DNA of 64,000 bases from Candidatus Desulfaltia sp. (GCA_030656555.1 JAUSPN010000106.1:8404-72403), one strand, 5' to 3'; counted from the first letter of the stretch, positions 12,173 to 32,732 are shown. Program-made: numbers and translations. The notes: generated by a model from the sequence alone, not told the origin.

Positions 12173-12180
12173 GGAATTAA

Positions 12181-12388: not shown

Positions 12389-12395
12389 AAAACAC

Positions 12396-16588: not shown

Positions 16589-16611
16589 AACACTCATGAC
16601 AAACAATAAGG

Positions 16612-17346
16612 TTGTTATTTAAAATGAAAAAACTATCTAAAATAAGTCTGCTTATATGTTTGTGCTTTACCGCTTTTTCATCGTTTGCAGAGGCAAATCA
16701 ACAAGTTGCAGGCACTGTAACATTTATGATCGGAGATGTATTTGTTTCTCATGACAAAACAACCTGGGTTAACGCAGATTTTGACATGAAAATTTATCAG
16801 GGGGATCAAATCAGAACAGAAGTGGAATCACGTTGCGAAATTACCCTTGAAGACGGCACAATGGTTAGAATGGATGAAAACACGTCACAGCAATTTGAAA
16901 AATGTATGGTAAGCAAAACCGCAAAAGAGGTTTCCTTGTTTCTGTCTTCAGGTAAAGTGTGGTTAAACGCCCGCAAAATCCTTGCAAAATCCGACAGCTT
17001 TAAGGTCAGGACCAATAAAGCGGTTTGCGCAATACGCGGAACAAAGTTCAGAGTTGATACAGAGGATGAACAGACGCGAATTAGTGTCCATAAAGGGGTT
17101 GTGGCAACATGGAGTGCTTTGTTTGATAAACCAAAACCTGAGACGGATGTTTTCACATTAGAACCTAAGCCAATAGCCGGGCCGCATCCGGTATCCATGG
17201 AAAAGTGGGTAGAAATTGTAAAAGCTTTTCAGCAGATTACAATCGATTCAAACGGAAAATATGAAAAAAAGGATTTCAATATTAATAGCATTATGGAAGA
17301 TCAATGGATAAAATGGAATATGGTTCGTGATGGTGATCAGGATTAA
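16612..17346 (+). CDS. FecR-domain secreted protein
   Basis: 244 aa with a signal peptide. GDQIRTEVESRCEITLEDGTMVRMDENT...AVCAIRGTKFRV fits the FecR pattern. C-terminal GPHPVSMEKW motif is shared with 29357..30145. Confidence 0.7.
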   Translation: MLFKMKKLSKISLLICLCFTAFSSFAEANQQVAGTVTFMIGDVFVSHDKTTWVNADFDMKIYQGDQIRTEVESRCEITLEDGTMVRMDENTSQQFEKCMVSKTAKEVSLFLSSGKVWLNARKILAKSDSFKVRTNKAVCAIRGTKFRVDTEDEQTRISVHKGVVATWSALFDKPKPETDVFTLEPKPIAGPHPVSMEKWVEIVKAFQQITIDSNGKYEKKDFNINSIMEDQWIKWNMVRDGDQD

Positions 17347-17402
17347 GGAGTAAAATCAGTAAAACAGCTTTAATTCCTGAATTCGCAAAGAGACTTTTTG
17401 TC

Positions 17403-17552
17403 TTGTTCCCATGTTCCAACGTGAGAACCTATATGGTATGCATTCCCACGCTGGAGCGTGGGAACGAGAAACAAAATAATTTAAATGGCAAAGCGACATC
17501 ATTATTCAACGTTCGATGTTGGACGTTCGATGTTCGACGTTCATCTTTTAAT
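17403..17552. repeat. Variant hairpin element plus CGAACGT-type low-complexity arm
   Basis: attcccacgctggagcgtgggaa hairpin. Then agcgacatcattattcaacgttcgatgttggacgttcgatgttcgacgttcatctttt, near-identical to 54681-54735. Confidence 0.65.
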
Positions 17553-17590
17553 TTGTTCTTCGTGCTTCGTGGTGAAAAAAAACATAATAA

Positions 17591-19015
17591 ATGCTAAAAT
17601 CTCGCGATTCAACATACAAAAAACACTTAACAATCCTCGCGCTTGCCGTTGTGGGGTTTTCCGTTCTCTTTATTTCTATTCTGCTTAAAGGCATTGCCTA
17701 TAACATACTTACCCAGATAGACAACACCCTTTATGCACAATTTTTGTTAATTCGGGAGCGGCTCAACGAGGATAAAAAGGCTGTTCAGAGCAATGTCATT
17801 ATTGTCGGGATCGACGACAGGACATTAAACAGGTTAGGCGCTTATAACCCTTCCACATATCGAAAATATCACATAGATCTGCTTGCGAATATACTCAAAG
17901 GCAAACCCGCCGCGGTGGCTTATGATATCCTTTTCGGCGATCCCCACGATGATCCGGATGTGGACAGACGGTTTTCTGAGATTATGAAAAAAGGGCCGGT
18001 CTTTTCGGTTATTTTCGGGTCTGCTCATGCTCAATCAAAACAAATGTTCAGGCCGCTTGCCGATAATATCTCCGGCAAACAGGACATGAAATTTGTAAGC
18101 GAAAACGGTTTTGAGTCAATGGCTCCCTTTATGCTTTCTTCTTTGAAAGGCATTGGCCTCGCAAACGCCTACCCGGATAATGATGGGATATTAAGGAAGA
18201 TGCCGATGCTTTTCAAAGTGGGCGGCAGGCTTTATCCGACAATATCGCTCGAGATATTTAGAAACATAAATAATATTCCGGAATCTAAAATCAGGACCAT
18301 AAACAACAGAGTAATAACCGGCAAGACAACAATTCCTGTTGATAAATATTGTAGAGCGCATGTAAACATCGATAATACATACAAAATAAGAGAAATATCA
18401 TTTTATGATGTCTGGGCGGGTCGCGTGCCAGGGCGTTTTTTTAATGATAAAGTTGTGTTTATTGCTGCAACAGCCACAGGCCTTGGCGATAACAAACTGG
18501 TCCCGCTGCTTGGCTATGTCAGCGGAATAATGATTCACGCCAACCTGTTCCTGAATATGGTTCACAATAATTTCATTAATGAAGTTGCGGGAACCTCTTA
18601 TTATCTTCTAATACTTTTTGCTTCTTTTTTTTATACATACCTGTTTTATGTCCGTCACGAATTGCCGCTTATAAAAAGGGCGGTTGATTATGTCTCCAGC
18701 GTGTCACTTGTTATCAACTTCGGCAATGCGTTTCTTAAGATCCCATTTATCAGTCGTCCTTATAATGGATTCAAATCCATGCGTGACAAAAGCTATGTTT
18801 TAAGAATATTTTTTCTTTTGTTTTCTGAAACACGACAGCGTCTTGCGCCGGTCCTTTTGCAGCTTGTATTTCTGTACGCAACCCTTTTTTTAATTTTCTA
18901 TTATTTGAATATCCTCATTAAACCATTTACCATTATGATACAATTAATTATCTGTTATATAATTGTTTCTGAATTCAAAAGAATAGATTTCACCAAGATT
19001 TCTCCCCAAAAGTAA
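17591..19015 (+). CDS. CHASE2-domain membrane protein without output domain
   Basis: 474 aa. VIIVGIDDRTL...AAVAYDILF...GIGLANAYPDNDGILRKMP...VVFIAATATGLGDNKLVP parallels the CHASE2 part of 14291. It ends in TM helices only. Confidence 0.65.
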   Translation: MLKSRDSTYKKHLTILALAVVGFSVLFISILLKGIAYNILTQIDNTLYAQFLLIRERLNEDKKAVQSNVIIVGIDDRTLNRLGAYNPSTYRKYHIDLLANILKGKPAAVAYDILFGDPHDDPDVDRRFSEIMKKGPVFSVIFGSAHAQSKQMFRPLADNISGKQDMKFVSENGFESMAPFMLSSLKGIGLANAYPDNDGILRKMPMLFKVGGRLYPTISLEIFRNINNIPESKIRTINNRVITGKTTIPVDKYCRAHVNIDNTYKIREISFYDVWAGRVPGRFFNDKVVFIAATATGLGDNKLVPLLGYVSGIMIHANLFLNMVHNNFINEVAGTSYYLLILFASFFYTYLFYVRHELPLIKRAVDYVSSVSLVINFGNAFLKIPFISRPYNGFKSMRDKSYVLRIFFLLFSETRQRLAPVLLQLVFLYATLFLIFYYLNILIKPFTIMIQLIICYIIVSEFKRIDFTKISPQK

Positions 19016-19029
19016 AAAGGAAAATCAGA

Positions 19030-20667
19030 ATGAGAATATTGCCAGAGCATAGATTAATTATTTCTATCCTTACAATTGCAAGATCGCGGGCAATACGGAC
19101 ATGCCTGTTTTTTGTTTTAATCCTGCCGATCTTTTATATTTATTCCGAAAAAGCGGCTATTGGCGCATATAATGATGTTAGCGGCTTTAATACAGCTGCC
19201 GAGCTGCTTAATAATGGAATGTATCTTGAAGCATTAAGCATATATCAGGAGATTTCAATTTACTCGGATAAACAAGACAACAGAGCGCGGGCATTGTTAT
19301 TCATGGGAACCACTTACAGCCTTTATCTTGATCGGTATGACGCTGCCCTGGAACAATTTGACAAAATTATTAAAACCTATCCAACCAGCCAGACAGCATC
19401 TGATGCTCTTTTTAACAGTGGCATGGTATTATATGAAACAGGAAAATTTAAAAACGCTCATGCTTTTTTTAAAAAGTACATGGAAAAATATCCGGATGGT
19501 CCGCGCATACAATCGGCGGAAGTATGGGCTGACAGCGCAAAGACTCAGATGTCGGAGATTCGGAAACCTGAAGAGATTGCTCCGGTTCCTTTGGATAAGA
19601 TGGATGTTGAGGATACAATTATAAGGGTTTTGATTAAAAACAAAGCTGAAAAAACTACCATTTATTCAGAGCAAAGCATCTCGTTGTATGATCCATTTTC
19701 AAAGAAAATGATTTATCGCAGCTCCGAGCCTGTGATTTTCACAAAACAAGGGGAGCAGCTTGCGGCAAATGGCCGGAAGCTTGATCTCCACATGTGTATG
19801 GTCAAAACCAACGGCAAAGCTATTATGGTTGATAATCGCAGATTCAGGGGCGAGCTTACTATACTGGCTGATTCAAAATCGCTGTCTGTTGTTAATAATA
19901 TTCCGGTTGAACAGTATCTTTATGGCGTCGTGCCGAAAGAAATGCCGCATAGCTGGCCAAAGGAAGCACTGAAAGCTCAGGCAGTGGCTGCCAGAACATA
20001 TGCTCTTTATATTAAAGATAAAAGCGCCGACAAACCATATGATGTGGAATCAACCACGACATCGCAGGTATATGGAGGATTTGACGCTGAAAAAGAGGAG
20101 TCTAATCTGGCGGTTGATGAGACACGCGATCAGGTAATCACCTATGATGGAAGACTTATTGTTGCCTATTTTCATTCAAGCAGCGGAGGGCATACTGAAG
20201 ATTCAAAAAATGTCTGGACTGCTGATTTGCCATATCTTAAAGGGGTTTCTGACGGTTTTAGCGCAAATATTCCAAATAGCCAGTGGAGCTTTTTTGTTTC
20301 ATATAACGATATGCAAAACAATTTGAACAAGTACGGCCTGAATATTGGACAGATTAGTGTGCTCAATGCCGCTGGTGAGTCTCAATCAGGACGTTTACTG
20401 GGAGTAAGTGTTGTTGCAAACAACGGGACAACCGAACTAAAAAGCAATAATTTCAGAATAAAGGTTGGAGCGACCAGATTAAAAAGCACACTTCTAAAAA
20501 TGGCTCCCGAGCGTGACGGCATTCTTTTTGCCGGCAAAGGTTACGGCCATGGAGTCGGCATGAGTCAATGGGGCGCAAATGTGATGGCCCAAAAAGGATT
20601 TGGTTATCAGGACATTTTAAAGCATTATTATCAATCTGTTAAAATAGTGGCTTTAAGCAGCCAATAA
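19030..20667 (+). CDS. TPR + SpoIID/LytB-domain protein (lytic transglycosylase family)
   Basis: 545 aa. TM anchor and TPR block. Then YLYGVVPKEMPHSWPKEALKAQAVAARTYAL...YFHSSSGGHTE...GHGVGMSQWGA. Confidence 0.8.
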   Translation: MRILPEHRLIISILTIARSRAIRTCLFFVLILPIFYIYSEKAAIGAYNDVSGFNTAAELLNNGMYLEALSIYQEISIYSDKQDNRARALLFMGTTYSLYLDRYDAALEQFDKIIKTYPTSQTASDALFNSGMVLYETGKFKNAHAFFKKYMEKYPDGPRIQSAEVWADSAKTQMSEIRKPEEIAPVPLDKMDVEDTIIRVLIKNKAEKTTIYSEQSISLYDPFSKKMIYRSSEPVIFTKQGEQLAANGRKLDLHMCMVKTNGKAIMVDNRRFRGELTILADSKSLSVVNNIPVEQYLYGVVPKEMPHSWPKEALKAQAVAARTYALYIKDKSADKPYDVESTTTSQVYGGFDAEKEESNLAVDETRDQVITYDGRLIVAYFHSSSGGHTEDSKNVWTADLPYLKGVSDGFSANIPNSQWSFFVSYNDMQNNLNKYGLNIGQISVLNAAGESQSGRLLGVSVVANNGTTELKSNNFRIKVGATRLKSTLLKMAPERDGILFAGKGYGHGVGMSQWGANVMAQKGFGYQDILKHYYQSVKIVALSSQ

Positions 20668-20671
20668 TGAT

Positions 20672-20720
20672 GAACCGCAAAAGCGAGCGCATTCCACGCT
20701 GCTTGCGGCGGGGAGTTTTA
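20672..20720. repeat. Half copy of the CCCCGC-hairpin intergenic element
   Basis: gaaccgcaaaagcgagcgcattccacgctgcttgcggcggggag. Same left end as the 54558 copy and as the reverse complement of the 40042 copy. Confidence 0.7.
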
Positions 20721-20962
20721 ATATTTCAGCAAGACTCGTAAAAAAATTAATAGAGCTCGCAAAATCTCACGGACAACAAAAAGATAACAAAATCCTTATC
20801 GACCTTTCTTTAACGCAGAAAGAGCTTGGCGATATGGTCGGAGCAACAAGGGAAAGCATTAATAAGGAGCTTAAATCGTTGCGAGAACAAGGTCTGATAA
20901 TAATTGAGGGGAGCAGAATCCAAATACTCGACACATCTCGCCTTAAAAGCAAAATTTTTTGA
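20720..20962 (+). pseudogene. C-terminal HTH remnant of a Crp/Fnr-family regulator
   Basis: Own translation (no usable start codon): ISARLVKKLIELAKSHGQQKDNKILIDLSLTQKELGDMVGATRESINKELKSLREQGLIIIEGSRIQILDTSRLKSKIF. The cNMP-binding domain is absent. The frame runs straight out of the repeat element. Confidence 0.6.
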
Positions 20963-20985
20963 TCTTGAAAAGGAGAACGCATTAC

Positions 20986-21885
20986 ATGTTAGCCATTAAA
21001 TCAAAAACAGGAAGTATGAATGTGGCAAGAATAGCCGCGCTGGTATTTCTGTTCATTATATCTGCTGCGTATGCTTATGCCTCGCAATCTACCATTACAG
21101 AGGCCGAGGGGTATGCCTGCATGGGTGAGGACAGGTCAAGGAGACAGACAGAACTGGCTGCGCTGGAAGCTGCAAAGAGAAACGCAATAGAGTTCGCGTC
21201 GACCTACATGACAAGCGAAACTCATATCAAGGACTTCGAGCTTGAGAAAGATCTGGTTTCTGCATATGCCAATGCCACTGTAAAAGTCATCAAGGAAATC
21301 GAAAAGGGCTGGTACAAAGATGCAAGGTCAGGGGATTGCTTCAGTGTAAAAATTAAGGCCGAGGTGATACCTGATGAAAAGGCAATGGATAAAGTTTCTA
21401 AAAGAAAGGATGTTGCCGACGATCCATCCGCCCCGCTCCATGTTCAGGTCTGGACGGATAAAAAGGAATATGAGCGTGGCGACAGGATGAGGATTTACAT
21501 AAAAGGCAACAAGCCCTTTTATGCCAGCGTCATATACAGGGATGCTGCCGGAAAAATGGTTCAGATCCTGCCCAATCCATACAGAAATGAAAACTATTTC
21601 CAGGGCGGGGTTATCTATGAGATACCGTCGGGCAAAGACAGATTTGATCTTGAAATAAGCCCTCCATTTGGCGAGGAAAACATATCCGTATATGCAAGCA
21701 CGTCACCGCTGGGCAAGATAGACCTTAACTCTCAGGGCGGAGTCTATTTTGTCAAGACAAAGGCAAATGACATAGGTGCAAGAACAAGAGGAGTATCGCT
21801 AACCGGAAAATCAACCGGCAAAACCGGCTATGCCTCTGAGTTCTATGAGAATAAAGCTGAAATTAAAACAAAGTCTGCGCGATAA
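20986..21885 (+). CDS. Secreted LPP20-like N-domain + DUF4384-like domain protein
   Basis: The track ORF starts at 20959, but AAGGAG precedes the ATG at 20986. LAALEAAKRNAIEFASTYMTSETHIKDFELEKDLVSAY is LPP20-like. VWTDKKEYERGDRMRIYIKGNKPFYASVIYRDAAGKMVQILPN is DUF4384-like. Confidence 0.55.
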   Translation: MLAIKSKTGSMNVARIAALVFLFIISAAYAYASQSTITEAEGYACMGEDRSRRQTELAALEAAKRNAIEFASTYMTSETHIKDFELEKDLVSAYANATVKVIKEIEKGWYKDARSGDCFSVKIKAEVIPDEKAMDKVSKRKDVADDPSAPLHVQVWTDKKEYERGDRMRIYIKGNKPFYASVIYRDAAGKMVQILPNPYRNENYFQGGVIYEIPSGKDRFDLEISPPFGEENISVYASTSPLGKIDLNSQGGVYFVKTKANDIGARTRGVSLTGKSTGKTGYASEFYENKAEIKTKSAR

Positions 21886-22166
21886 GTTTGCAAGAAATAA
21901 AATAAAAGCAAAATACCCGAACCCGTTCTTTTGGGCCGTGTTTATACTTCATAGCGAAGGTTAAAAGGTGTTTAGTGTTAATTTGGCAAAAAAAGGGGCA
22001 AATGTCCCGTATTTGGTTTAATTTATTGATTTCAGCCATACTTATAGTGTAATTTATAATGCAGTGAATTCCATTGTTGTCATGTGATCTATTCCATTGC
22101 GGTTCTTATAATAAACAGATTATGATAAAAGCGTGAAAATGCTTTTTATATGAGGCTGTCAATATT

Positions 22167-24968
22167 ATGAAAAGAAAATGTAGCATAATAACAATATCCT
22201 TGTTGCTGATAATCATGTTTGCAAGCCTTTGTGTTTTCGGATGCGTAGCCGTGGGTAAAAAAACTGCTATTGTTTCCGGTATCGAGATCGCCTTTAAAGG
22301 AACTTATAAGGTTGATCCATACATGGAAAAGCATATGCCGCGTACTGTGGCTATTCTTCCCTTTGTTGATGAATCAAAAAGCCAAAAAGGGGCTGAAGCT
22401 GTGCGCAGAGGTTTTTATAACCATCTCAGCTCCCTGCCATATAAAGATATGGAACTCTTTCGTGTCGACCACCTGCTCAGAAAAGCAGGGCTTGCCGACC
22501 CTGTTGACGTGCACAAAATATCGCCTGAAAAACTTAAGGAGATCCTCAACGTAGATGCGGTTATTTTTGGAACCATATCAAATTTTGACAAGCTCTTTGC
22601 AGGCGTTTATTCACAGGTCTCTGTCGGCGCTGAAATAAAGATGTATGATACACAGGGGCATTTTCTGTGGTCAGGCCAGCATGTGGCCCGCATACACGAA
22701 GGCGGCATTTCTGTCACACCTATCGGCATTGTTGCTTCAATTATTGCCGCTGCCATGAATGTAAGAGATATACAACTGCTTAGAGCATGCGACGATCTTT
22801 TCAGGGATATGGTTAAAACGATCCCGGCGGTAAAACAGGCCGAAGTACTCCGAAAGCCGCGTATTGAGATGCTGGCACAGGATTCAAAAGGAGAACCAAA
22901 GAAAGCCGGCGATATAATTAAGGTGGCATTAAAAGGTGATCCAGGAATGCAGGCGTGGTTTGATATGGGTGATTTCAAAAAAGGTATCGACATGGCGGAG
23001 GTTGAGCCGGGTGGATACGTAGGCTCTTACAGTGTGGTGCCCGGAGACAATATAAAGGATGTTGTTGTTACAGGGTATTTGTCTGATGATGCCGGTAATA
23101 CAACAAGCTGGGTTGATGCAACCAGGACAGTAACCCTTGATACAACCCCGCCGGATGCCCCCAAAAACCTGACAGCTACAGGTCGTGATAATAGGGTTGT
23201 GTTAAGCTGGGATAAAAACACAGAAGATGATCTTTCAGGGTATATAGTTTACAGAAGCGATACTCCGCTTAGCGGTTTCAAAAAAATAGGACAGACCGAG
23301 TTCGCCGGGTTTGAGGATGAAAATGCAATAAATTTAAATGCCTTTTATTATAAAATTTCTGCCATTGATCTGGCTGGTAATGAAAGCAACAATGAGGAGG
23401 CTGTTGCCGGAACGGCGGTGCCTCCAGGTCCTACCTATGTAAAAGGTAACCTGGAAAAGGATACAATATGGTATGCTGGAGCAAGCCCGTATATTATTGA
23501 AGATACAGTAATTGTTTCGGAAAGATCCTCTCTTTTAATCGAGCCGGGCACAATAATTAAATCCAGTGGAGGTGGCCTGGTTGTCAAGGGCGGTCTAATT
23601 GCAAACGGCAGCAAAAACCAGACAATTACCTTTTTATCGGTCAAGGATGTTGGGGAGGATGTTGGGGAGAGTGTTTTAGAGAACGCCTGGAAGGGGATTT
23701 TATTTGACAGTGTTAAGGGCGATAAGAATCTGCTCGCATTTTGCCGGATTAAAGACGCAGCCATAGGTGCTGAAATTAAGTCGTCATCGCCGGAGATCAG
23801 AAACTGCGAATTTGTAAAAAATAATATCGGCATTAAAATTATCGGAGGCTTTTCAAATCCACAAATAGAAGAATGTATAATCCACGATAGCAGATCCGAA
23901 GGCATTAAGATTATAGATGGAGCAAGAGTTTCCATTAAAGATAACCGCATAAAAAATAATAATGCAGGCCTGTTTATTCAGGATGCTGGGTCGGTTTCAG
24001 TAAAAGGTAATTTAATAACTAATAACAAAGGCTGCGGCATTATTGTTAAAAACAGCGAGGCTGCAATTTCAAAAAATAATATTTATGATAATATCCCGTC
24101 AGACATGAAGGGGGCATTTCATGGCAAAGCCGCTGATGCCGATGACAACTGGTGGGGTAAAGCTGACTGGCATGACCTTTTGACCAATACAAGTGGACGA
24201 ATAAATATTAAGACAATCCTTGATGGTCCGTATCCTGATGGGAAACCGATCGCTATTCCGGTTATAACGGGAAATCTTGGCGGACAGATTGATACGGATT
24301 CAATTCTTGCATTCTCTGACAGCCCTTACAGAATAACAAAAGACCTGATACTGGATAATGGTGCAACACTTTATATCCAGCCGGGTGTTATACTTTTGTT
24401 TGACAAGCAGTTTTCGATTATAACAAAAAACGGCGGTGTAGCTGCCAGGGGAACAAAAGATAATCCTATTATATTTACATCTTCAGGATCTTCCCCTTCG
24501 CCGGGAGATTATAAAAATGCCGTATCTTTTTCAGAGCCAACCAAAGTCAGCAGTTTTTTTAAATACTGCAAATTTGAATATGCTGCAACAGCTATAGATG
24601 TCCAGCATGGAATGCCTGAAATCGCATACTGCCATATTGTAAACAATTCTCAAAGCGGGATTCGGTGCGGCAATGATGCCGGGCCGAGAATATTGTATAA
24701 TACGATTGCAAAAAACTTAGGGACAGGCGGAATAGAATGTGTGGGCATGGCAAACCCAAAAATTCATCACAATAACTTTGTGGAAAATGCCGTGGCAATT
24801 CAATCTTTTTCAACCATTTATATTGATGCCCGTAATAATTTCTGGGGCAAGGTGCCGCCTGACGATACAGTAATATGGGGTAAAAATATAAACATAACAC
24901 CCTGGCTCGAAGTCCCTGATGTGGATGCATTTTCTATTACGCAAGAAAAGCCGATAAAAAGAGATTAA
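22167..24968 (+). CDS. Giant lipoprotein: DUF799/GNA1162-like N-domain + Ig/FN3 + two blocks of right-handed parallel beta-helix repeats
   Basis: 933 aa. Lipobox VFGC. VAILPFVDESKS...DAVIFGTISNFD is DUF799-like. TTPPDAPKNLTATGRDNRVVLSWDKNTEDDLSGYIVYRS is FN3. Repeated NxxxxNxxxGIxI units (PbH1) follow. Confidence 0.7.
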   Translation: MKRKCSIITISLLLIIMFASLCVFGCVAVGKKTAIVSGIEIAFKGTYKVDPYMEKHMPRTVAILPFVDESKSQKGAEAVRRGFYNHLSSLPYKDMELFRVDHLLRKAGLADPVDVHKISPEKLKEILNVDAVIFGTISNFDKLFAGVYSQVSVGAEIKMYDTQGHFLWSGQHVARIHEGGISVTPIGIVASIIAAAMNVRDIQLLRACDDLFRDMVKTIPAVKQAEVLRKPRIEMLAQDSKGEPKKAGDIIKVALKGDPGMQAWFDMGDFKKGIDMAEVEPGGYVGSYSVVPGDNIKDVVVTGYLSDDAGNTTSWVDATRTVTLDTTPPDAPKNLTATGRDNRVVLSWDKNTEDDLSGYIVYRSDTPLSGFKKIGQTEFAGFEDENAINLNAFYYKISAIDLAGNESNNEEAVAGTAVPPGPTYVKGNLEKDTIWYAGASPYIIEDTVIVSERSSLLIEPGTIIKSSGGGLVVKGGLIANGSKNQTITFLSVKDVGEDVGESVLENAWKGILFDSVKGDKNLLAFCRIKDAAIGAEIKSSSPEIRNCEFVKNNIGIKIIGGFSNPQIEECIIHDSRSEGIKIIDGARVSIKDNRIKNNNAGLFIQDAGSVSVKGNLITNNKGCGIIVKNSEAAISKNNIYDNIPSDMKGAFHGKAADADDNWWGKADWHDLLTNTSGRINIKTILDGPYPDGKPIAIPVITGNLGGQIDTDSILAFSDSPYRITKDLILDNGATLYIQPGVILLFDKQFSIITKNGGVAARGTKDNPIIFTSSGSSPSPGDYKNAVSFSEPTKVSSFFKYCKFEYAATAIDVQHGMPEIAYCHIVNNSQSGIRCGNDAGPRILYNTIAKNLGTGGIECVGMANPKIHHNNFVENAVAIQSFSTIYIDARNNFWGKVPPDDTVIWGKNINITPWLEVPDVDAFSITQEKPIKRD

Positions 24969-26081
24969 ATGGATAGAAGACTTTTTATAAAACTTTTGAG
25001 TCAAGGTGCCTTTGTTTCATACGGCTTGCTAAAGTGCCCGGTTTTGGGCTGGTCTGAGAGTGCATTTGATTTGGCACTTGAAGGGCAGGATCTGATTCAG
25101 AAGAAAGATTTTCCCAAAGCAATTAAGGCGCTTCAAGAGGCTGTGCGCATAGATCCGAAAAGCGACTGGGCGTTTGGTCTTCTTGGACGGGCGCATCTTG
25201 GACTTGACCAGAAAGCGGAAGCTGTGGCTGCATTCAGACAAGCCGTACGTTTGAATCCATCTGACACATATTCACGTATGATGATTGAAATTACAACCCA
25301 AAAACCTATTCCGCGGCTTGCAAAAAAGGAAAAGCCTCTTACAGATCTTGAAAAGGAAGCAATACACGAAGAAGAGGAGATGCTTAAAAAACTGCATGCT
25401 GAGAAAGGACTGGATTACAAAGTAAAACGGGTTGTGATTGATGCGGGTCATGGTGGATTTGATCCAGGAGCTGTTGGACAAAAAGGGCTTAAAGAAAAAG
25501 AGGTAACCCTGGATCTTGCGCTAAAGTTACACGAAAGACTGGCCAGGGAGGGAAAAATCAAATCCTTTCTGACCAGGACAGGCGACTATTATATTCCTCT
25601 TAGCGCAAGAACCGTTACCGCAAATCAATTTCAGGCAGACCTCTTTATAAGTATACATATAAACGCAAACAAAAACAGACAGCCAAGCGGTTCGGAAACA
25701 TATTTCTGTTCGGAAAAGGCTTCAAGCGCAGAGGCTGAAAAGGTAGCGGCCCTGGAGAATTCAGTGCTTAAGTATGATGAGTCTTACAAAAAAAAGCAGG
25801 GTTATATAGATATTGAAGAGATTTTGTTTAAGTTCGAACAAAATCTTAACTGGAGTGAAAGCGGAGAGTTTGCAAAGGCTTTTCAAGAACGTTTTAAAAA
25901 AAGACTGCCGCTGAAAAGCAGGGGGGTTCATTCAGCCAATTTCTATGTTTTGCGTCGTGCTAAAATGCCTGCGATACTTCTTGAAACAGGATTTATATCC
26001 AATCCTGATGATGAAGCAATGTTAGAGCAGCCTGCTTTCAGAGAAAAGATTGTAGATGCAGTGGCAAGGGGGCTTGCGTGA
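24969..26081 (+). CDS. Tat-signal TPR + N-acetylmuramoyl-L-alanine amidase (Amidase_3, AmiC-like)
   Basis: 370 aa. MDRRLFIKLL resembles the twin-arginine motif. TPR block. VVIDAGHGGFDPGAVG..GLKEKEVTLDLALKL...DLFISIHINA...SGSETYF...VLRRAKMPAILLETGFISN. Confidence 0.85.
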   Translation: MDRRLFIKLLSQGAFVSYGLLKCPVLGWSESAFDLALEGQDLIQKKDFPKAIKALQEAVRIDPKSDWAFGLLGRAHLGLDQKAEAVAAFRQAVRLNPSDTYSRMMIEITTQKPIPRLAKKEKPLTDLEKEAIHEEEEMLKKLHAEKGLDYKVKRVVIDAGHGGFDPGAVGQKGLKEKEVTLDLALKLHERLAREGKIKSFLTRTGDYYIPLSARTVTANQFQADLFISIHINANKNRQPSGSETYFCSEKASSAEAEKVAALENSVLKYDESYKKKQGYIDIEEILFKFEQNLNWSESGEFAKAFQERFKKRLPLKSRGVHSANFYVLRRAKMPAILLETGFISNPDDEAMLEQPAFREKIVDAVARGLA

Positions 26082-26956
26082 GAATCAGGGGCCAGGGGTC
26101 AGGGATTAGGGGGGAATATATCTTTCTTGCTATTATGCTGTTTTTTTGTTGCAGCACTGTTGTTGCAGCAGCGGATGTAAACGAGCTGATATTTCAGGGA
26201 GCTGACTATCATTACAAGGGGAATTTGGAAAAAGCTGTAAGCAGTTTTGAACAAGCGGTAAAACTTGATCCTGAAAATGAATATGCGCATAACCAGCTTG
26301 GCATCCTGTATGGGAAAAAAGACGAATTTGACAAAGCTTTCAGAGAATTTTTAACTGTTGCAGATATAGACAGGCAAAATACTTTCGCATTCTTGTGGCT
26401 TGGTATTCTTAACCTGCGTAAAGGGGAAATGAACCAGGCCTTTGAGATGTTTAATAAAATAATTCAAATTGATCCAAACAGCGCGGATGGTTACTATTTT
26501 CTTGGAACCATCTACAATTTCAGACGCAATCCTGTTATGGCTATCGAATATCTGAAAAAAGCGAGGAATGCCGATTCCGGAGAGGCAGACACCCATTTCA
26601 GGCTGGCAAAAGCCTTTCATAATGCGGATATGATCGCAAATGCATTACTTGAATATAACAAGACGCTAGAAATCAAACCTTCATATACAAAAGCGCTTAA
26701 TGAAATAGGGTGGATTTACTATAATACAGGGAAGAAAGAGGCAGCCATAGACCAGTGGAAAAAAACCCTGAAGATAAACAGCAAAGACAGTGATGCCGTT
26801 CTTAACCTTGCCAAGGTTTATAATGATTTTGCATGGGACGCTTTTACATCAGGGGGAAGAAAGGATGCATTAAAATACTGGCAAAAGACTCTTAACATAA
26901 ACCCAGACAATAAAGCAGCAAAGTATTATATTGAAAAATACGGTTCAGGAAAGTAA
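26078..26956 (+). CDS. Secreted TPR-repeat protein
   Basis: 292 aa. Signal-like FLAIMLFFCCSTVVAAA, then about 7 TPR units. The start overlaps the amidase stop. Confidence 0.75.
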   Translation: MRIRGQGSGIRGEYIFLAIMLFFCCSTVVAAADVNELIFQGADYHYKGNLEKAVSSFEQAVKLDPENEYAHNQLGILYGKKDEFDKAFREFLTVADIDRQNTFAFLWLGILNLRKGEMNQAFEMFNKIIQIDPNSADGYYFLGTIYNFRRNPVMAIEYLKKARNADSGEADTHFRLAKAFHNADMIANALLEYNKTLEIKPSYTKALNEIGWIYYNTGKKEAAIDQWKKTLKINSKDSDAVLNLAKVYNDFAWDAFTSGGRKDALKYWQKTLNINPDNKAAKYYIEKYGSGK

Positions 26957-27127
26957 ATTAAGCTTTAAGTATAATGAACTCGTAAAAAGTTTCGAAATTG
27001 TCATGCCGGACTTGATCCGGCATCCAGAACGCATTGAATTTACTGGACTCCGGTTTTCACCCGAGTGACGACTTTTTACGAATTCATCAAACATGACAAC
27101 CGAAAATTTACATCCCAAGGAGGTATT

Positions 27128-28012
27128 ATGAAAAAGTATGCAATTTTAGCAATAGTGTTTGTCGGGCTGCTTATCCTGCCCGCTTCTGTTTATTGTCAGC
27201 AATTTCAGGATTTGGTCGAACAGATCGGAACCGGCGACATTAACTGGACAAAGGGAATTATTCAGGCAAAGGGGATCGGAGTTCCGCCCGAAAAATATTA
27301 CGGCAAACCTCAAGCGCGTCCCATGGCGTTAAGAGCTGCAAAACTGGATGCTATGCGCAACCTTCTTGAAGTTACAAAAGGTGTGAGAATCAGTTCAACA
27401 ACCCTTGTAAAAGACTTTGCTATTACAAGCGATATAATTATGTCCCAGGTCGAGGGAATGGTTAAGGGGGCTCAGGTAGTCCATCAGGAATATATGTCGG
27501 ACGGCACGGTTGAAGTTATCATTCAAATGAGCTTGATGGGAGGGTTTGCTCAACTGATTCTTCCTGTGGAAATCAAGCAGGTTGAATCGATTACGCCTAT
27601 GCCGCCCGTTCAGAAAGAACCATTACCCCCTGTTGCCATGCCCGAAGCTCAGGCTCCAAAGCTTGTACCAGAAGTTTTTACAGGCATGGTAATTGATGCA
27701 AGAGGAATTAATGCAAGACCTGCAATGGCGCCGAAAATTCTTAACGAAAACGGCGAGGAAGTTTACGGATCGGCATATGTAAGCCGCGAGTTTGCTGTGC
27801 AACAAGGGATGAGCGGATATGCAAAGGATCTTACGGCCGCCCAGAGCAATCAAAGGGTTACAAACAGTCCTTTAACCGTTAAAGGGCTTAGAACCGAAGG
27901 ACATGGCCGTTCCGATATAATTATAAGCAATACAGATGCTTCCAGACTTCGAAGTGCTTCAGAGCATCTTTCATTCTTGAAAAAATGCCGTGTGATGATT
28001 GTGGTAGATTAG
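27128..28012 (+). CDS. LPP20-like secreted protein
   Basis: The track ORF starts at 27065 inside a repeat (TTFYEFIK). AAGGAGG precedes the ATG at 27128 (MKKYAILAIVF). RPMALRAAKLDAMRNLLEVTKGVRISSTTLVKDFAITSDIIMSQVEGMVKGA is LPP20-like. Confidence 0.6.
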   Translation: MKKYAILAIVFVGLLILPASVYCQQFQDLVEQIGTGDINWTKGIIQAKGIGVPPEKYYGKPQARPMALRAAKLDAMRNLLEVTKGVRISSTTLVKDFAITSDIIMSQVEGMVKGAQVVHQEYMSDGTVEVIIQMSLMGGFAQLILPVEIKQVESITPMPPVQKEPLPPVAMPEAQAPKLVPEVFTGMVIDARGINARPAMAPKILNENGEEVYGSAYVSREFAVQQGMSGYAKDLTAAQSNQRVTNSPLTVKGLRTEGHGRSDIIISNTDASRLRSASEHLSFLKKCRVMIVVD

Positions 28013-28046
28013 GCGAAAAGCTCAAAAAAATATTTAAGGAGGAATC

Positions 28047-29201
28047 ATGTTTGCTAAAAAGATATTTATTATGCTGGCTGCTATCAGCCTGCTTTTCCTT
28101 TACGCATGCGGACCAAAGGCAATGGCTCCGAAAGCTGAGCTGGATACGCCGGAGCACCATGTTGTCAACGGCAATAAGCTGATGAAGGCGGGCAAGATTG
28201 ATGTGGCATTTCGTGAATTCAACAGGGCAAAAGAGTTGAATCCGAAATTTTCACCGGCCTATGTGGGGCTCGGCCTTGTTGAGGGATTAAGAGCTGATTT
28301 TAATAACAGCCTTAAAACCATGAAAGAGGCAAGGAAATATGCACAGGGAGATGAGCAAAAAATAGCGGTTAATGTGGGGTTTATACGGCTTTATATAATG
28401 GGCAAGACAAATATTGATGAAAACTGGCTCAAGCTGGTTGAAGAGGAATTTGATAAAGCCGTGTTGATTTCCAAAGATGTTTCCGAACCATATTTCTATA
28501 TGGGTCTGGCCTATAAAATCTCTTATAAGTTCCGTCAGGCCGAGGACCAGTTTTCAAAAGTACTTGAATTAGGCAATGGATATATTGCAGAGGCTGATAA
28601 GGAATACGCTCTTGTTCAGAAAATCGAAAGAGCCATGCCCGGTTCAAAAATAGGGAAAAAGATCGCTCTTGTCGAAGAAATTACTCGCGCAGATGTTGCC
28701 GCCCTTTTTATTGAGGAACTTAAAGTTGATAAGATTTTTAAAAAAAGGTTTTCAAAAAAATTCGACAGCGCATTTAAAAGCCCTGAAAATAAATTGGAGA
28801 CTGAAACATCTGTAAAGATTCTACCGGCAACCGATATAGATGATCATGTGCTGAAGGCGGATATTGATGCTGTAATAGAAATAGAAATCAAGGGGCTTCA
28901 GCCTTTTCCGGATCACACCTATAAACCGTATCAGACTATAACCCGCGCGGAATTTGCAATGATGATAGAAGATATTCTCATAAAGCTCACCGGTGTTGAT
29001 GATCTGGCTACCAGGTTTATCGGAAGTGTTTCCCCTTTTCCGGATTTGAGAAATGATCTTCCGTATTTCAATGCTGTTATGATTTGCACTACCCGCGGCA
29101 TTATGGTGGCAAATCTTGCGACAGGAGAGTTTGACGCGATAGGTCCGGTTTCAGGCGCAGACGCTCTTTTAAGTATTCGCTCACTTAAATCTCAGCTATA
29201 G
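28047..29201 (+). CDS. Lipoprotein with TPR N-half and SLH-like C-half
   Basis: 384 aa. Lipobox LYACG. TPR block. Two ITRA(D/E)... segments (ITRADVAALFIEEL; ITRAEFAMMIEDIL) resemble S-layer-homology domains. Confidence 0.5.
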   Translation: MFAKKIFIMLAAISLLFLYACGPKAMAPKAELDTPEHHVVNGNKLMKAGKIDVAFREFNRAKELNPKFSPAYVGLGLVEGLRADFNNSLKTMKEARKYAQGDEQKIAVNVGFIRLYIMGKTNIDENWLKLVEEEFDKAVLISKDVSEPYFYMGLAYKISYKFRQAEDQFSKVLELGNGYIAEADKEYALVQKIERAMPGSKIGKKIALVEEITRADVAALFIEELKVDKIFKKRFSKKFDSAFKSPENKLETETSVKILPATDIDDHVLKADIDAVIEIEIKGLQPFPDHTYKPYQTITRAEFAMMIEDILIKLTGVDDLATRFIGSVSPFPDLRNDLPYFNAVMICTTRGIMVANLATGEFDAIGPVSGADALLSIRSLKSQL

Positions 29202-29202
29202 T

Positions 29203-29346
29203 AAGGATTAAGGGATAAAAGGATTAAAGGATTAAGGATTAAAAGGATTAAGATTAAGGGCTTGTTCGCAGAGGTTGTTAGTCCATTCAGCATTGGGCTG
29301 TCTTATTCATAACCCCATCTAATCCCTGCCCCTTAATCCTTACCCC
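29203..29346. repeat. Palindromic element with GGATTAA-type low-complexity arms
   Basis: Left arm taaggattaagggataaaaggattaaaggattaaggattaaaaggattaagattaaggg. Right arm ccccatctaatccctgccccttaatccttacccc. GGATTAA arms recur at 39889-39927 and 63701-63716. Confidence 0.7.
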
Positions 29347-29356
29347 AATTATTAAC

Positions 29357-30145
29357 TTGGAGTATATTATTATGAGGCTTATTATTAACAGGGCATTGCC
29401 TTTATTTTTTCTTTTTGTTCTTCTGTTTCCATTTTCCGTGCAGGCTAAAAACAATGCGCTTGAAATTGAAATACAAGGTGATATGGCGGAAATTACCCTG
29501 ATTGAAGGAAAGGTTGAGGTGATTAAAAAAGGGATAATAAAGCCTCAACCTTTAGCGCTTGGAGATTACGCTGCACATGGTGATCAAATCAGCACAAAAA
29601 AAGGCTCTAGAATAGAGCTTAAACTGCCCGATAACAGCCTGATACGTTTTGATGAACTTACAACCTTTGAGATTGTATCTGCTGAATTCGACAAAAATAC
29701 AAAACAAAGAGATATAAATGTAAACATGGTTTTAGGGAAAACATGGGCAAATGTATCAAAAATGTTAGGGCAAAAGGGACGTTTTGAGGTTTCAACAAAA
29801 ACAGCAGTGGCCGGTGTACGCGGCACTGTTTACAGGGTAAATGTTGCGGAAGACAACACTGTACTGGTTAAAGTTTACTGGGGCGAGGTTGGAGTAAGCA
29901 GCGCCCCAAAGCCGGATACTGCTTCGCAATCTCAGCAAATCATGAAACCTACCAGAGTTCTGGGGCCGCATCCGGTTGCCGGCCCGCATGCCGTGTCCAT
30001 GGAAGAATGGACATATATCATAAAGTCCATGCAGCAAATTGTTATCCGGCCTGACGGCACAGCCACAAAACCGATGCCGTTTCTTGCCAGCGAGGATTTA
30101 AACGACTGGGTGCGCTGGAATCAGGAGCGGGATAAGAAAAATTAA
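29357..30145 (+). CDS. FecR-domain secreted protein, paralogue of 16612..17346
   Basis: 262 aa with a signal peptide. GDQISTKKGSRIELKLPDNSLIRFDELT...AVAGVRGTVYRV. C-terminal GPHAVSMEEW...DLNDWVRWNQERD is shared with the paralogue. Confidence 0.7.
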   Translation: MEYIIMRLIINRALPLFFLFVLLFPFSVQAKNNALEIEIQGDMAEITLIEGKVEVIKKGIIKPQPLALGDYAAHGDQISTKKGSRIELKLPDNSLIRFDELTTFEIVSAEFDKNTKQRDINVNMVLGKTWANVSKMLGQKGRFEVSTKTAVAGVRGTVYRVNVAEDNTVLVKVYWGEVGVSSAPKPDTASQSQQIMKPTRVLGPHPVAGPHAVSMEEWTYIIKSMQQIVIRPDGTATKPMPFLASEDLNDWVRWNQERDKKN

Positions 30146-30453: not shown

Positions 30454-30744
30454 ATGGATTATCTCGCGGATACAGTTACAGTTATTCGGCATTTTTCCGG
30501 GGTGGGGCGTATTGGTCGGAAGGCAAAAACTATTTTAGAAGGTGTAGAAGAAGGGGATCATCATGATCTAAGAAAAAGAAGGCCAGAAGATCCAAACAAG
30601 ATAAACATTAATCAGCCTTGGGAGGTCAATCATTGGTGTTCTAAGTTTGGGGTATCAGTCGATATTTTGAAAAAAGCGGTAAAGGCTGCTGGTACTTCTG
30701 TTAATGAAGTTGAAAAAGGGCTGCGTTGTAATGGCCATATCTAA
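30454..30744 (+). CDS. Chimeric ORF: truncated PIN (VapC-like) N-terminus fused to a DUF3606-like C-terminus
   Basis: MDYLADTVTVIRHFSGVGRIGRKAKTILEGVEEGDHH matches only the first ~37 aa of PIN toxins. The rest (PEDPNKININQPWEVNHWCSKFGVSVDILKKAVKAAGTSVNEVEKGL) fits the DUF3606 pattern. Confidence 0.45.
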   Translation: MDYLADTVTVIRHFSGVGRIGRKAKTILEGVEEGDHHDLRKRRPEDPNKININQPWEVNHWCSKFGVSVDILKKAVKAAGTSVNEVEKGLRCNGHI

Positions 30745-30765
30745 ACATTAAAGAGGAGGAAGGAA

Positions 30766-32707: not shown

Positions 32708-32732
32708 TCAACTAAACTAAGGAGGTAAAAAA

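Follow-up and report, generated by a model that had tools for sequence, protein, structure and literature searches.

Two TPR-fused peptidoglycan hydrolases of the SpoIID and Amidase_3 types in a modular CHASE2 cyclase operon of Desulfobacterales

Results

Layout of the locus

The window, meaning the whole stretch of DNA analysed (64,000 nucleotides), comes from a Candidatus Desulfaltia MAG of the order Desulfobacterales. The following 11 genes form the operon under study:

14291-16588, + strand: operon gene 1, CHASE2 sensor with class III adenylate/guanylate cyclase (Pfam CHASE2 3e-60, Guanylate_cyc 1.6e-20)
16612-17346, + strand: secreted FecR-domain protein, extra copy (Pfam FecR 3.5e-20; weak MtxA_N/DUF7354)
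17591-19015, + strand: CHASE2-only membrane protein, extra copy (Pfam CHASE2 4.4e-40)
19030-20667, + strand: TPR-SpoIID, 545 aa; signal/anchor, TPR, middle domain, SpoIID/LytB catalytic domain
20959-21885, + strand: secreted protein with a FlgP/LPP20-like N-domain (BLASTP) and DUF4384 (Pfam 1.1e-25)
22167-24968, + strand: lipoprotein "giant" with GNA1162-like (DUF799), FN3-like and two right-handed beta-helix regions (Pfam, PDB)
24969-26081, + strand: Tat-TPR-Amidase_3, 370 aa (Pfam, PDB, AF2 model with Foldseek)
26078-26956, + strand: exported all-TPR protein (Pfam TPR_1 2.6e-31)
27128-28012, + strand: secreted protein with a FlgP/LPP20-like N-domain, Pro-rich linker and Tp0624-D2-like C-domain (profile against PDB)
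28047-29201, + strand: lipoprotein with TPR and C-terminal SLH-like repeats (Pfam TPR_2 3e-6, SLH 1.6e-5)
29357-30145, + strand: secreted FecR-domain protein, terminal core gene (Pfam FecR 5.7e-19)

Because a promoter and terminator scan was uninformative, co-transcription is judged from strand and spacing only; gaps of 244-291 bp surround the inserted genes of the window. The operon core consists of the CHASE2 adenylate cyclase, TPR-SpoIID, the FlgP/LPP20-like periplasmic protein (27128-28012) and the secreted FecR-domain protein. Judging by gene order and overlap, the Tat-TPR-amidase and a translationally coupled all-TPR protein appear to make up an optional cassette between the SpoIID and FlgP-like genes. 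Further insertions in the window's lineage are the extra FecR/CHASE2 pair, the DUF4384 protein and the DUF799-beta-helix lipoprotein. This envelope operon is modular yet conserved, and is inherited within sulfate-reducing Desulfobacterales. Its core-genome neighbourhood is likewise conserved, with mla genes upstream and genes for SAM synthetase, AdoHcyase and pantoate ligase downstream; no division genes were found in its flanks.

The original prediction had described SpoIID and Amidase_3 reading frames, each with an N-terminal TPR module ahead of the catalytic domain. Profile and PDB searches recovered both at exactly these coordinates, and Pfam returned both architectures. Its description of the intervening DUF4384 (1e-25) and DUF799-beta-helix proteins, and of a pure TPR protein following, was also accurate. 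The name LPP20 given to the DUF4384 protein was not, as this protein had no Pfam LPP20 match; its N-domain only resembles the FlgP/LPP20-like domain of the 27128-28012 protein (BLASTP 2e-5).

The TPR-SpoIID enzyme

Pfam assigned a SpoIID domain (PF08486) at 1.1e-31 (109.8 bits against a cutoff of 23) and TPR_6/TPR_2 repeats at 1e-7 to 5e-9. With 262.7 bits against a cutoff of 83.3, the protein belongs to the NCBIfam SpoIID_LytB domain family (TIGR02669), and residues 287-542 match SpoIID structures in the PDB (4rwr, 7.8e-34; 5i1t, 9e-30). The predicted TM anchor corresponds to a single hydrophobic stretch at the N-terminus, for which a cleaved signal peptide is just as plausible. The TPR module (aa ~52-165, nt 19183-19524) is of the YbgF/CpoB type (NCBIfam TIGR02795, 1e-12; PDB 6g5s, 4e-7), and is followed by a conserved, beta-rich middle domain (aa ~195-285) and the SpoIID/LytB catalytic domain (aa 287-539, nt 19888-20646).

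The catalytic Glu, equivalent to B. subtilis E88, is E304 (nt 19939-19941) in VVPKEMP. Its aligned counterparts are the "SEM" Glu of SpoIID from B. anthracis (4rwr) and the "GEM" Glu of 5i1t. All of 16 homologues of 41-84% identity retain E304, and the SGGxTE and GHGVGxSQxGA motifs are equally invariant among them. The motifs originally quoted for this protein are all present (AQAVAARTYAL 316-326, SSGGHTE 384-390, GHGVGMSQWGA 506-516), and the enzyme looks catalytically competent from its residues.

A sporulation SpoIID identity was rejected, the spore_II_D equivalog (NCBIfam TIGR02870) scoring 200.2 bits, below its cutoff of 234.75. Among the 11 proteins of the operon and the remaining window ORFs that reach 150 aa, Pfam matched neither SpoIIP nor SpoIIM. 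These results speak against an engulfment-like machine. Occurrence outside the Firmicutes is not new either: many non-sporulators have SpoIID homologues, and the Waddlia one is septal (PMC6635528).

The TPR-amidase

Amidase_3 (PF01520) was found by Pfam at 3.1e-55 (187.3 bits against a cutoff of 27) and TPR_2 at 4e-12. Over residues 154-369 the protein matches AmiC (4bin, 6e-38) and AmiA (8c2o, 6e-34) end to end; AmiA, AmiC and AmiB were the best Foldseek matches for its AF2 model, with LytH-ActH (7tj4) among the structural neighbours. A twin-arginine motif, RRLFIK, lies at aa 3-8 (nt 24975-24992), and its RRxF positions (R3, R4, F6) are at least 90% conserved among homologues; the Tat signal is predicted from the motif alone. 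An AMIN domain had no Pfam match, and the N-terminus holds instead a TPR module (aa ~32-110, nt 25062-25298), from which a conserved linker leads to the Amidase_3 domain (aa 155-369, nt 25431-26075). The two TPR modules, originally called matching, gave no BLASTP alignment with each other and belong to different subfamilies (YbgF/CpoB/BamD-like and TPR_1/2/11).

The quoted motifs were again present, with GHGG at 160-163, SIHINA at 228-233 and SGSETYF at 240-246. Zinc ligands H161, E176 and H230 and the catalytic E339 align with the AmiC/AmiA ligands. Together with N232, E263 and N264 they are invariant among 20-24 homologues. With its zinc-binding and catalytic residues all in place, the amidase too looks catalytically competent, and its identity is 62-94% over 120 clusters.

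A regulatory insert occupies aa ~250-312 (nt 25716-25904). AmiC, AmiA and Bartonella AmiB give one continuous alignment across it (aa 154-369), whereas with the insert-less enzymes CwlV (1jwq), AmiC2 (5emi) and 4rn7 the alignment breaks into two stretches. The insert contains the blocking-helix latch E263 in ALENSV, aligned to the Glu of AmiA "RENR" and AmiB "SENK", and an interaction-helix-like segment, IEEILFKFEQ (aa 282-291). The AF2 model has helices at 253-264 and 282-312, but with low pLDDT; in the regulatory region, over aa 235-298, it drops below 50. The alignments indicate that the amidase carries an AmiA/B/C-type autoinhibitory insert; the latch and interaction-helix mechanism of regulated amidases has been described (PMC10268282).

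The NCBIfam equivalogs for AmiA, AmiC and AmiB were all below cutoff. At the fourth zinc-ligand position the protein has an invariant Asn232 (in SIHINA) and not the AmiA-type Asp (D135), a distinction described earlier (PMC9245657); the activator-dependent AmiA, AmiB and LytH have Asp, and regulation may therefore differ. No LytM-type (Peptidase_M23) gene, the class of the activators EnvC and NlpD, was found in the 64-kb window.

Linkage of the two hydrolases

We compared 18 TPR-SpoIID loci and 74 SpoIID loci from other phyla, including Cyanobacteria, Nitrospirota, Myxococcota and Planctomycetota (loci carry L numbers below). The TPR-amidase was linked to TPR-SpoIID in 6/18 loci: within the same operon in five, directly adjacent in two of them (L113, L119), and 8.3 kb away in the closed genome CP070789. 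Five loci kept the operon without the amidase (L002, L004, L114, L116, L117) and seven had an orphan TPR-SpoIID, so that 12 of the 18 had no amidase within 10 kb. Conversely, about 10 amidase loci were without SpoIID within 10 kb. None of the 74 SpoIID loci of other phyla was flanked by Amidase_3. In a rough binomial, chance would link at least 6 of 17 loci with p ~3e-7, given 3 amidase genes per 3.4 Mb and no correction for phylogenetic non-independence. Linkage within this lineage is above chance, as the original prediction would have it, yet facultative, and the two hydrolases need not share one site of action.

Several operon types were distinguished. The compact type (L113, L119) runs cyclase, SpoIID, amidase, TPR, FlgP-like, TPR-SLH, FecR, with about 10-45 bp between SpoIID and amidase. 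The expanded type comprises the window, L086 and L118, and a minimal type has cyclase, SpoIID, FlgP-like and FecR genes (L116, L117). Either hydrolase alone still keeps the FlgP-like and FecR genes. Amidase-only loci of this kind (L083-L090, L095-L110) have no cyclase within 10 kb and adjoin CHAT or caspase-type proteins instead. Many stand-alone TPR-SpoIID genes adjoin the mlaFED housekeeping genes (L081, L115, L120).

Neighbouring proteins

A cyclase orthologue lies directly upstream of TPR-SpoIID in 10/18 loci, often with a gap below 100 bp or an overlap, and the pair of CHASE2 sensor and secreted FecR protein is conserved in 10 loci. An orthologue of the terminal FecR gene (29357-30145) closes the operon in L002, L004, L083-L090, L095-L110 and L113-L119. 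The cyclase immediately upstream of SpoIID, with FecR closing the operon, was the strongest association, and had been overlooked in the original prediction. L114 has, as an insertion within the operon, a gene for a cNMP-binding regulator of the Crp type. The extra FecR copy (16612-17346; tblastn) and the extra CHASE2-only copy, both present in L086 and L118, are restricted to the expanded type.

The all-TPR gene begins within the last 4 bp of the amidase gene. Wherever sequence downstream of the amidase is available, the all-TPR gene comes next, and no locus has it with SpoIID alone; its product is a candidate partner or activator of the amidase. The FlgP-like protein (64-97% identity among 120 homologues) accompanies SpoIID, the amidase or both in almost all operon variants. 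Its profile matches 9hmf_C (1.8e-11), FlgP 8z5n (1.5e-6) and 5jir (1.9e-4) in the PDB, and in single-sequence alignment residues 137-263 match 5jir, the C-domain resembling domain D2 of Treponema Tp0624. The TPR-SLH lipoprotein is encoded in most, not all, variants. Its lipobox (LYAC) was read from the sequence, both Pfam matches are below cutoff or partial, and SLH is faint in the homologues; cell-wall binding is possible.

The DUF799-beta-helix giant (Pfam GNA1162-like 5e-16, Beta_helix 3e-24, NosD 3e-19; PDB GNA1162 4hrv, 5e-10) lies between the two hydrolase genes in the expanded operons and directly abuts the amidase start with a 0-bp gap. The gene was absent from the compact operons and from L095-L110. 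It and the DUF4384 gene were both absent from compact operons, SpoIID-only operons and the amidase loci of ~64% identity; their absence from the compact type marks them as accessory insertions. The DUF4384 protein is lineage-specific and variable, its identity in L083 and L088 being no more than 23-24%.

Discussion

We tentatively favour, at somewhat under an even chance, an active periplasmic PG hydrolase pair within one modular Desulfobacterales envelope operon, by which local wall remodelling is tied to cAMP signalling. We regard the locus as a variant, so far uncharacterised, on known enzymes and not as an engulfment machine. The amidase would be exported folded via Tat, and its AmiA/B/C-type blocking helix, with E263 as latch, would keep it inactive. 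A partner would then free it. The TPR protein co-translated with it is the best candidate, in analogy to ActH, whose TPRs activate the Amidase_3 enzyme LytH and are a precedent for TPRs as amidase activators (PMC9245657); an unlinked LytM factor may serve instead. Once freed, the amidase would remove stem peptides at one site, and the SpoIID-type enzyme, placed by its own CpoB/YbgF-like TPR, would cut the denuded glycan. Amidase first and SpoIID second is established biochemistry. The wall would thereby be remodelled locally and under regulation, at or close to an envelope assembly of FlgP-like, FecR and CHASE2 proteins, possibly in physical complex, and in a manner coupled to cAMP signalling.

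The main rival, which we consider rather unlikely, is that both are housekeeping division enzymes. The TPR-amidase would be the functional AmiC of the order with TPR replacing AMIN targeting, TPR-SpoIID would be a septal glycan cleaver recruited via its CpoB-like TPR to Tol-Pal/PBP complexes, and the operon neighbours would be regulatory or coincidental. E. coli AmiC and AmiA align with the whole length of the catalytic domain, insert included, and the Tat motif is conserved as it is in AmiA/AmiC (PMC10268282). High conservation of the amidase, the YbgF/CpoB match of the SpoIID TPR, the stand-alone SpoIID genes beside mlaFED and the conserved core-genome neighbourhood all agree with it, as does the septal location of Waddlia SpoIID and the proposal of SpoIID as a common septal remodeller (PMC6635528). 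A plain division gene is, however, a poor fit to the tight adjacency of SpoIID and cyclase in 10/18 loci and to the persistence of the FlgP-like and FecR genes, and the flanks of the operon lack division genes.

The original prediction had both enzymes dock to a common TPR scaffold and open a hole for the DUF799-beta-helix machine, or pores at cell-cell junctions. The position of the giant in expanded operons and the TPR-only protein after the amidase speak for it, and so does the core FlgP-like partner. FlgP-family proteins form rings beneath the outer membrane in flagellar motors, and a wall-spanning assembly is therefore conceivable. This model is nonetheless very unlikely: no similarity was detected between the TPR modules, the TPR-only protein goes with the amidase and not with SpoIID, and the supposed machine is missing from the compact and SpoIID-only operons and from the amidase loci of ~64% identity. 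The autoinhibitory insert, lacking in Nostoc AmiC2 (5emi), argues against the cyanobacterial nanopore analogy, and there was no sign of a filamentous host.

Signal generation also seems improbable. Here the hydrolases would release a PG fragment (denuded glycan, anhydro-muropeptide or stem peptide), which the FecR-domain protein and CHASE2 would sense, turning wall status into cAMP. The coupling of SpoIID to the cyclase, more constant than that of any other gene, the minimal operon and the Crp-type regulator at L114 point this way, although they are associations, and amidase-only loci have no cyclase nearby and adjoin CHAT/caspase-type proteins. The Burkholderia FecR partner of a CHASE2 kinase bears a PG-binding LysM, and CHASE2 ligands are stated to be unknown (PMC5192318). 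In a form that we rate just as improbable, the SpoIID-type enzyme, joined by the amidase at loci that have one, makes a PG-derived ligand or a local wall state that FecR/CHASE2 convert to cAMP. If true, the operon would be a pathway from cell-wall status to second messenger, and the orphan CHASE2 sensor domain would gain its first ligand class. A variant has the hydrolases clear wall space for a FlgP-like periplasmic ring coupling the outer membrane to the CHASE2 cyclase.

Comparison with known systems

The Bacillus subtilis SpoIID-SpoIIP-SpoIIM machine shares with the window the SpoIID catalytic domain and its catalytic Glu, and its amidase-before-SpoIID logic is plausible for the window pair. 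The window differs in a SpoIID below the equivalog cutoff, an operon without SpoIIP and SpoIIM, an amidase of the AmiA/B/C-type Amidase_3 family rather than SpoIIP, a diderm, non-sporulating host, a TPR targeting module and the link to a CHASE2 cyclase. The B. subtilis lytABC operon encodes both the Amidase_3 autolysin LytC and the SpoIID-domain "amidase enhancer" LytB. The window likewise has SpoIID/LytB and Amidase_3 genes in one operon, and its protein passes the shared SpoIID_LytB model. Gram-positive LytB/LytC have wall-binding repeats, not TPRs, and are not known to have Tat export, an autoinhibitory insert or signalling genes.

E. coli AmiA, AmiB and AmiC are division amidases activated by the LytM factors EnvC and NlpD (PMC10268282). 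The window amidase resembles AmiA/AmiC in zinc ligands, catalytic Glu, Glu latch, amphipathic interaction-helix region, end-to-end alignment and twin-arginine signal, but has TPR for AMIN, Asn232 for Asp, no nearby LytM gene and always an all-TPR protein after it. Staphylococcus aureus LytH-ActH offers another Amidase_3 that relies on partner TPRs (PMC9245657), and a precedent for fused or adjacent TPRs that serve to activate and not as a scaffold. Unlike the window's proteins, ActH combines its TPRs with a membrane rhomboid domain, and LytH has no blocking helix and keeps the Asp ligand; the parallel between the window's all-TPR protein and ActH is drawn by analogy.

SpoIID and AmiA of Waddlia/Chlamydia also belong to diderm non-sporulators, and the SpoIID there acts on PG and denuded glycans alongside an AmiA-type amidase at the division septum; neither a TPR fusion nor a cyclase/FecR operon is described for it (PMC6635528). 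A CHASE2 sensor beside a secreted FecR-type protein is known from the Burkholderia BiofilmReg operon (PMC5192318) and, with a FecR/MtxA-type protein and cyclase output, from the Magnetospirillum mtxA operon (PMC4439547). Both resemble the window in a CHASE2 TM sensor gene adjoining a secreted FecR-type gene, and the window differs from both in carrying PG hydrolases.

Gene content and setting

The window host is a Candidatus Desulfaltia MAG (Desulfobacterales, Thermodesulfobacteriota), in which eleven genes lie on one strand across window positions 14291-30145:

14291-16588, +, CHASE2 and class III cyclase
16612-17346, +, FecR-domain protein, secreted
17591-19015, +, membrane protein, CHASE2 only
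19030-20667, +, TPR-SpoIID
20959-21885, +, DUF4384 protein
22167-24968, +, lipoprotein, GNA1162-like (DUF799) and beta-helix
24969-26081, +, TPR-Amidase_3
26078-26956, +, all-TPR protein
27128-28012, +, FlgP/LPP20-like protein
28047-29201, +, lipoprotein, TPR and SLH-like
29357-30145, +, FecR-domain protein no. 2

Read from sequence, nine of the eleven products carry a signal-peptide-like or lipoprotein-like N-terminus, the exceptions being the two CHASE2 membrane proteins. A promoter and terminator scan of 13.9-31.5 kb gave nearly the counts expected of shuffled sequence, so that no operon boundaries were called from it. The reading of the region as a mobile or defence island was discarded, since the operon's surroundings are conserved core genome, with mlaFED upstream and, in relatives, SAM-cycle and pantothenate genes downstream. 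Mobile and toxin-antitoxin genes in the window start only past the terminal FecR gene.

The SpoIID enzyme

Both hydrolase reading frames, and all motifs quoted for them in the original prediction, were found in place. The SpoIID assignment is secure (Pfam 1.1e-31; NCBIfam SpoIID_LytB 263 bits against a cutoff of 83; PDB 4rwr 7.8e-34, aligned over aa 287-542), and the catalytic glutamate, E304 in VVPKEMP, is invariant across 16 homologues with identity down to 41%. Its score against the sporulation-SpoIID equivalog model is below the cutoff (200 vs 235 bits), and its existing database label is "SpoIID/LytB domain-containing protein". SpoIID-domain proteins outside the Firmicutes were already established (PMC6635528) and also occurred in our sampled genome loci of other phyla. 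The TPR of this enzyme is of the YbgF/CpoB/BamD type (TIGR02795 1e-12; CpoB 6g5s 4e-7), and that of the amidase is canonical TPR_1/2/11. The idea that the two enzymes share matching TPR modules was rejected, as BLASTP of the modules against each other gave no alignment.

The amidase and its TPR companion

The amidase, labelled "N-acetylmuramoyl-L-alanine amidase" in the database, is securely an Amidase_3 enzyme (Pfam 3.1e-55; AmiC 4bin 6e-38; AmiA 8c2o 6e-34). An alignment of homologues showed the catalytic and zinc residues H161, E176, H230 and E339 to be invariant. The top structural matches of an AF2 model were AmiA, AmiC and AmiB; with a pLDDT of 68 the model is of moderate quality, and its regulatory region is weakly modelled. 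The twin-arginine motif RRxF[LI]K is kept across the family, so Tat export is predicted. PDB alignments revealed that the regulatory insert of AmiA/B/C, about 50 residues, is present: these three align with the TPR-amidase in one piece, and the insert-less CwlV, Nostoc AmiC2 and C. difficile 4rn7 in two. The invariant E263 in ALENSV appears to correspond to the "latch" glutamate of the blocking helix, and IEEILFKFEQ is the probable counterpart of the interaction helix by which AmiA and AmiB are described to bind their activators (PMC10268282). The fourth zinc ligand differs, being Asn232 here and Asp in AmiA and AmiB. Judging from these sequence features, the protein would be an AmiC-type autoinhibited amidase in which a TPR has replaced the AMIN domain.

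The all-TPR gene has a 4-bp overlap with the amidase stop and accompanies the TPR-amidase in every amidase locus with downstream sequence. Its product is an amidase-specific companion and not a scaffold common to the SpoIID enzyme. A LytM activator was considered as amidase partner, and none lies within the 64-kb window.

Linkage of the two hydrolases

Loci came from three sources: genomes for those of TPR-SpoIID relatives, metagenomes for those of amidase relatives, and long contigs for those of single homologues. The eleven window proteins were mapped onto all of them by tblastn. Among the matches listed in the SpoIID genome scan (at least 80), 6 were full-length TPR-SpoIID relatives, and the remaining 74 were used as out-group controls.

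Arrangements at the 18 TPR-SpoIID loci (window included; L-numbers denote collected loci)
TPR-SpoIID and TPR-amidase in one operon: 5/18 (window, L086, L118, L113, L119)
TPR-amidase 8.3 kb off on the convergent strand: 1/18 (closed genome CP070789, L081/L082)
Cyclase, SpoIID, FlgP-like, (TPR-SLH), FecR, without amidase: 5/18 (L002, L004, L114, L116, L117)
Lone SpoIID: 7/18 (L003, L005, L006, L115, L120, L121, L122)

Linkage of the two genes, whose co-conservation the original prediction requires, is thus real and lineage-specific (6/18 loci, and 0/74 listed loci from other phyla with an Amidase_3 gene in the flanks of SpoIID), but it is facultative, with 12 of the 18 loci lacking an amidase in the operon or nearby. 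The chance of the observed linkage is about 3e-7 by a rough binomial that treats related loci as independent. Linked SpoIID and amidase genes occur in at least three distinct arrangements, and in L113 and L119 they directly adjoin, with neither a DUF4384 nor a DUF799 gene intervening. Equally sized longest contigs in the SpoIID and amidase match lists (14054, 3823, 24788, 14671 and 17053 bp) hint, not rigorously, at further co-resident pairs.

Amidase-centred loci almost always run amidase, all-TPR, FlgP-like, TPR-SLH, FecR; the genes past the all-TPR protein are missing in L093 and L094. Among amidase loci whose upstream sequence extends over 10 kb, SpoIID lies upstream only in L086. At about 64% identity, the loci have this place taken by a divergent CHAT-TPR gene, and the L088 group has ankyrin-caspase and WD40 genes in it. 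The most constant SpoIID neighbours are the CHASE2 cyclase (immediately upstream in 10/18 loci), the FlgP-like protein and the terminal FecR protein. The large beta-helix lipoprotein had been proposed as the machine that the pair serves; its DUF799-beta-helix gene and the DUF4384 gene turned out to be insertions present only in closer relatives.

Partner proteins

The FlgP-like core protein has profile matches to FlgP-type lipoproteins of solved flagellar motors (9hmf_C 1.8e-11; FlgP 8z5n 1.5e-6). For the C-domain the match is to domain D2 of Treponema Tp0624 (5jir residues 137-263; profile E 1.9e-4, single-sequence 1.2e-3), a fold with no known function (PMC5104382). An AF2 model from an 18-sequence alignment was unusable for a fold search, since mean pLDDT was 44 and the C-domain was unmodelled, and it was replaced by the PDB profile search. 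The N-domain of the DUF4384 protein is related to that of the FlgP-like protein, and the N-domain of the beta-helix lipoprotein matches GNA1162 (4hrv 5e-10). DUF4384 genes preceding the beta-helix lipoprotein in two amidase loci (L083 371-1072; L088 5771-6709) are 23-24% identical to the window copy although the adjoining amidases are 88-99% identical; the gene is therefore hypervariable or replaced.

No ligand has been known for the CHASE2 domain since its definition (PMC5192318). A CHASE2 sensor is found with a secreted FecR protein fused to a peptidoglycan-binding LysM domain in Burkholderia (PMC5192318), and in Magnetospirillum the sensor is a cyclase paired with a secreted FecR/MtxA-type protein (PMC4439547). 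A Crp-family cNMP-binding transcription factor is encoded between the SpoIID and FlgP-like genes of the L114 operon (11748-12440), in keeping with cAMP as the output of the CHASE2 cyclase. Amidase loci without cyclase and SpoIID have caspase-clan proteins encoded upstream: a 1149-aa TPR-CHAT protein in L096 (6384-9833, minus strand), and two ankyrin-caspase proteins with a 1068-aa WD40 protein in L088 (13-5838). Upstream of the FecR-terminated module, CHASE2 sensors and CHAT/caspase proteins may stand in for one another as partners. In CP070789, the beta-helix lipoprotein is replaced by three short genes (L082 7197-9779), one of 344 aa, one for a Beta_helix fragment of 136 aa and one for a FlgP-like paralogue of 350 aa. 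The downstream FlgP-like gene is cut to 82 aa, and the module there looks decayed or rearranged.

Other features of the window

A second envelope cluster lies upstream of mlaFED (4813-11156), with BON-domain, TPR and CsgG-like, CsgG-like and 375-aa unknown proteins, and on the minus strand a weak FlgT_N-like and a DUF6340/TPR protein. L118 likewise has a CsgG-like gene upstream of mla. As DUF799/GNA1162 genes are usually found together with CsgG-like ones, the beta-helix lipoprotein may be a functional part of this cluster.

Past the terminal FecR gene (30454-35832) the window has DUF3606, a PD-(D/E)XK nuclease (31408-32403) and an HTH_3 and Fic/DOC pair (34772-35832) where relatives have SAM synthetase, AdoHcyase and pantoate ligase, which suggests an insertion hot spot. 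The AMP-binding (acyl-CoA synthetase-like) gene at 35940-37653, minus strand, is split into two overlapping reading frames (N-part 377 aa, C-part 198 aa), likely a frameshift, pseudogene or assembly error. An RND efflux operon seems split, with about 7.8 kb of mobile/defence DNA between the HlyD-type membrane-fusion gene (42174-43478) and the AcrB-type pump (51321-54476), and G+C falling from 0.51 (44-46 kb) to 0.35 (46-48 kb). There, an AbiEii toxin gene seems to be interrupted by an IS21-family element (istA 49102-50634, istB 48353-49105, minus strand), with the N-part of the toxin (47804-48259, profile 2-105) on one side and its C-part (50675-51265, profile 127-191) on the other; a DUF6088 (AbiEi-like) gene lies upstream of AbiEii (47002-47802). 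A Peptidase_M78 (IrrE-like) gene followed by DUF4411 (43762-45407, start/stop overlap) looks like a two-gene toxin-antitoxin or defence-type pair.

Discussion

We tentatively favour the pair as a regulated, locally targeted wall-remodelling module. Beyond the observed domain content, residues and linkage, we infer the following steps. The amidase would be exported by Tat in an autoinhibited state and activated by a partner. The best candidate is the adjacent all-TPR protein, because the TPRs of ActH are necessary and sufficient to activate LytH, an Amidase_3 enzyme (PMC9245657); an unlinked LytM factor is the alternative. The amidase would then strip stem peptides, and the SpoIID enzyme, positioned by its CpoB-like TPR, would cut the denuded glycan. 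As both enzymes are attached to FlgP-like, FecR and CHASE2 genes, they may act at or for an envelope assembly of these proteins, in a process coupled to cAMP.

That the two are instead housekeeping septal enzymes, an AmiC analogue and a septal SpoIID as in Chlamydiales, is rather unlikely, despite the AmiC-like catalytic domain, the CpoB-like TPR, high conservation, core-genome location and the existence of orphan SpoIID genes, as the linkage to cyclase, FlgP-like and FecR genes is persistent. It is improbable that the hydrolases generate a ligand for the CHASE2/FecR sensor, a proposal whose support is associative. Slightly more doubtful still is the originally predicted engulfment-like pair, docked on a common TPR scaffold and opening a hole or nanopore in the sacculus. 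Against it, the beta-helix lipoprotein is accessory, the TPRs of the two enzymes are unrelated, the all-TPR protein is distributed with the amidase only, and the amidase has the autoinhibitory insert, unlike the insert-less Nostoc AmiC2.

The immediate value of these findings is a clean, conserved gene set. The family is abundant among sulfate reducers of marine sediments, some of them related to partners in syntrophic consortia (one Eth-SRB1 homologue was seen), and a role in envelope remodelling in aggregate life is conceivable. In the literature searched we found no description of a CpoB-type-TPR-SpoIID fusion, of an autoinhibited Tat amidase in which a TPR takes the place of AMIN and which has an obligate TPR companion, or of both enzymes embedded in a CHASE2-cyclase/FecR/FlgP-like operon.

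Little is known of how diderms aim and restrain wall-cutting enzymes outside the E. coli paradigm. The SpoIID enzymes of Bacillus and Waddlia were shown to cleave denuded glycan (PMC6635528), and a SpoIID glycan cleaver with a CpoB-like TPR, almost welded to a CHASE2 adenylate cyclase, is worth pursuit. The TPR-for-AMIN amidase with its separate TPR protein is a candidate for ActH-like activation, independent of LytM, in a Gram-negative.
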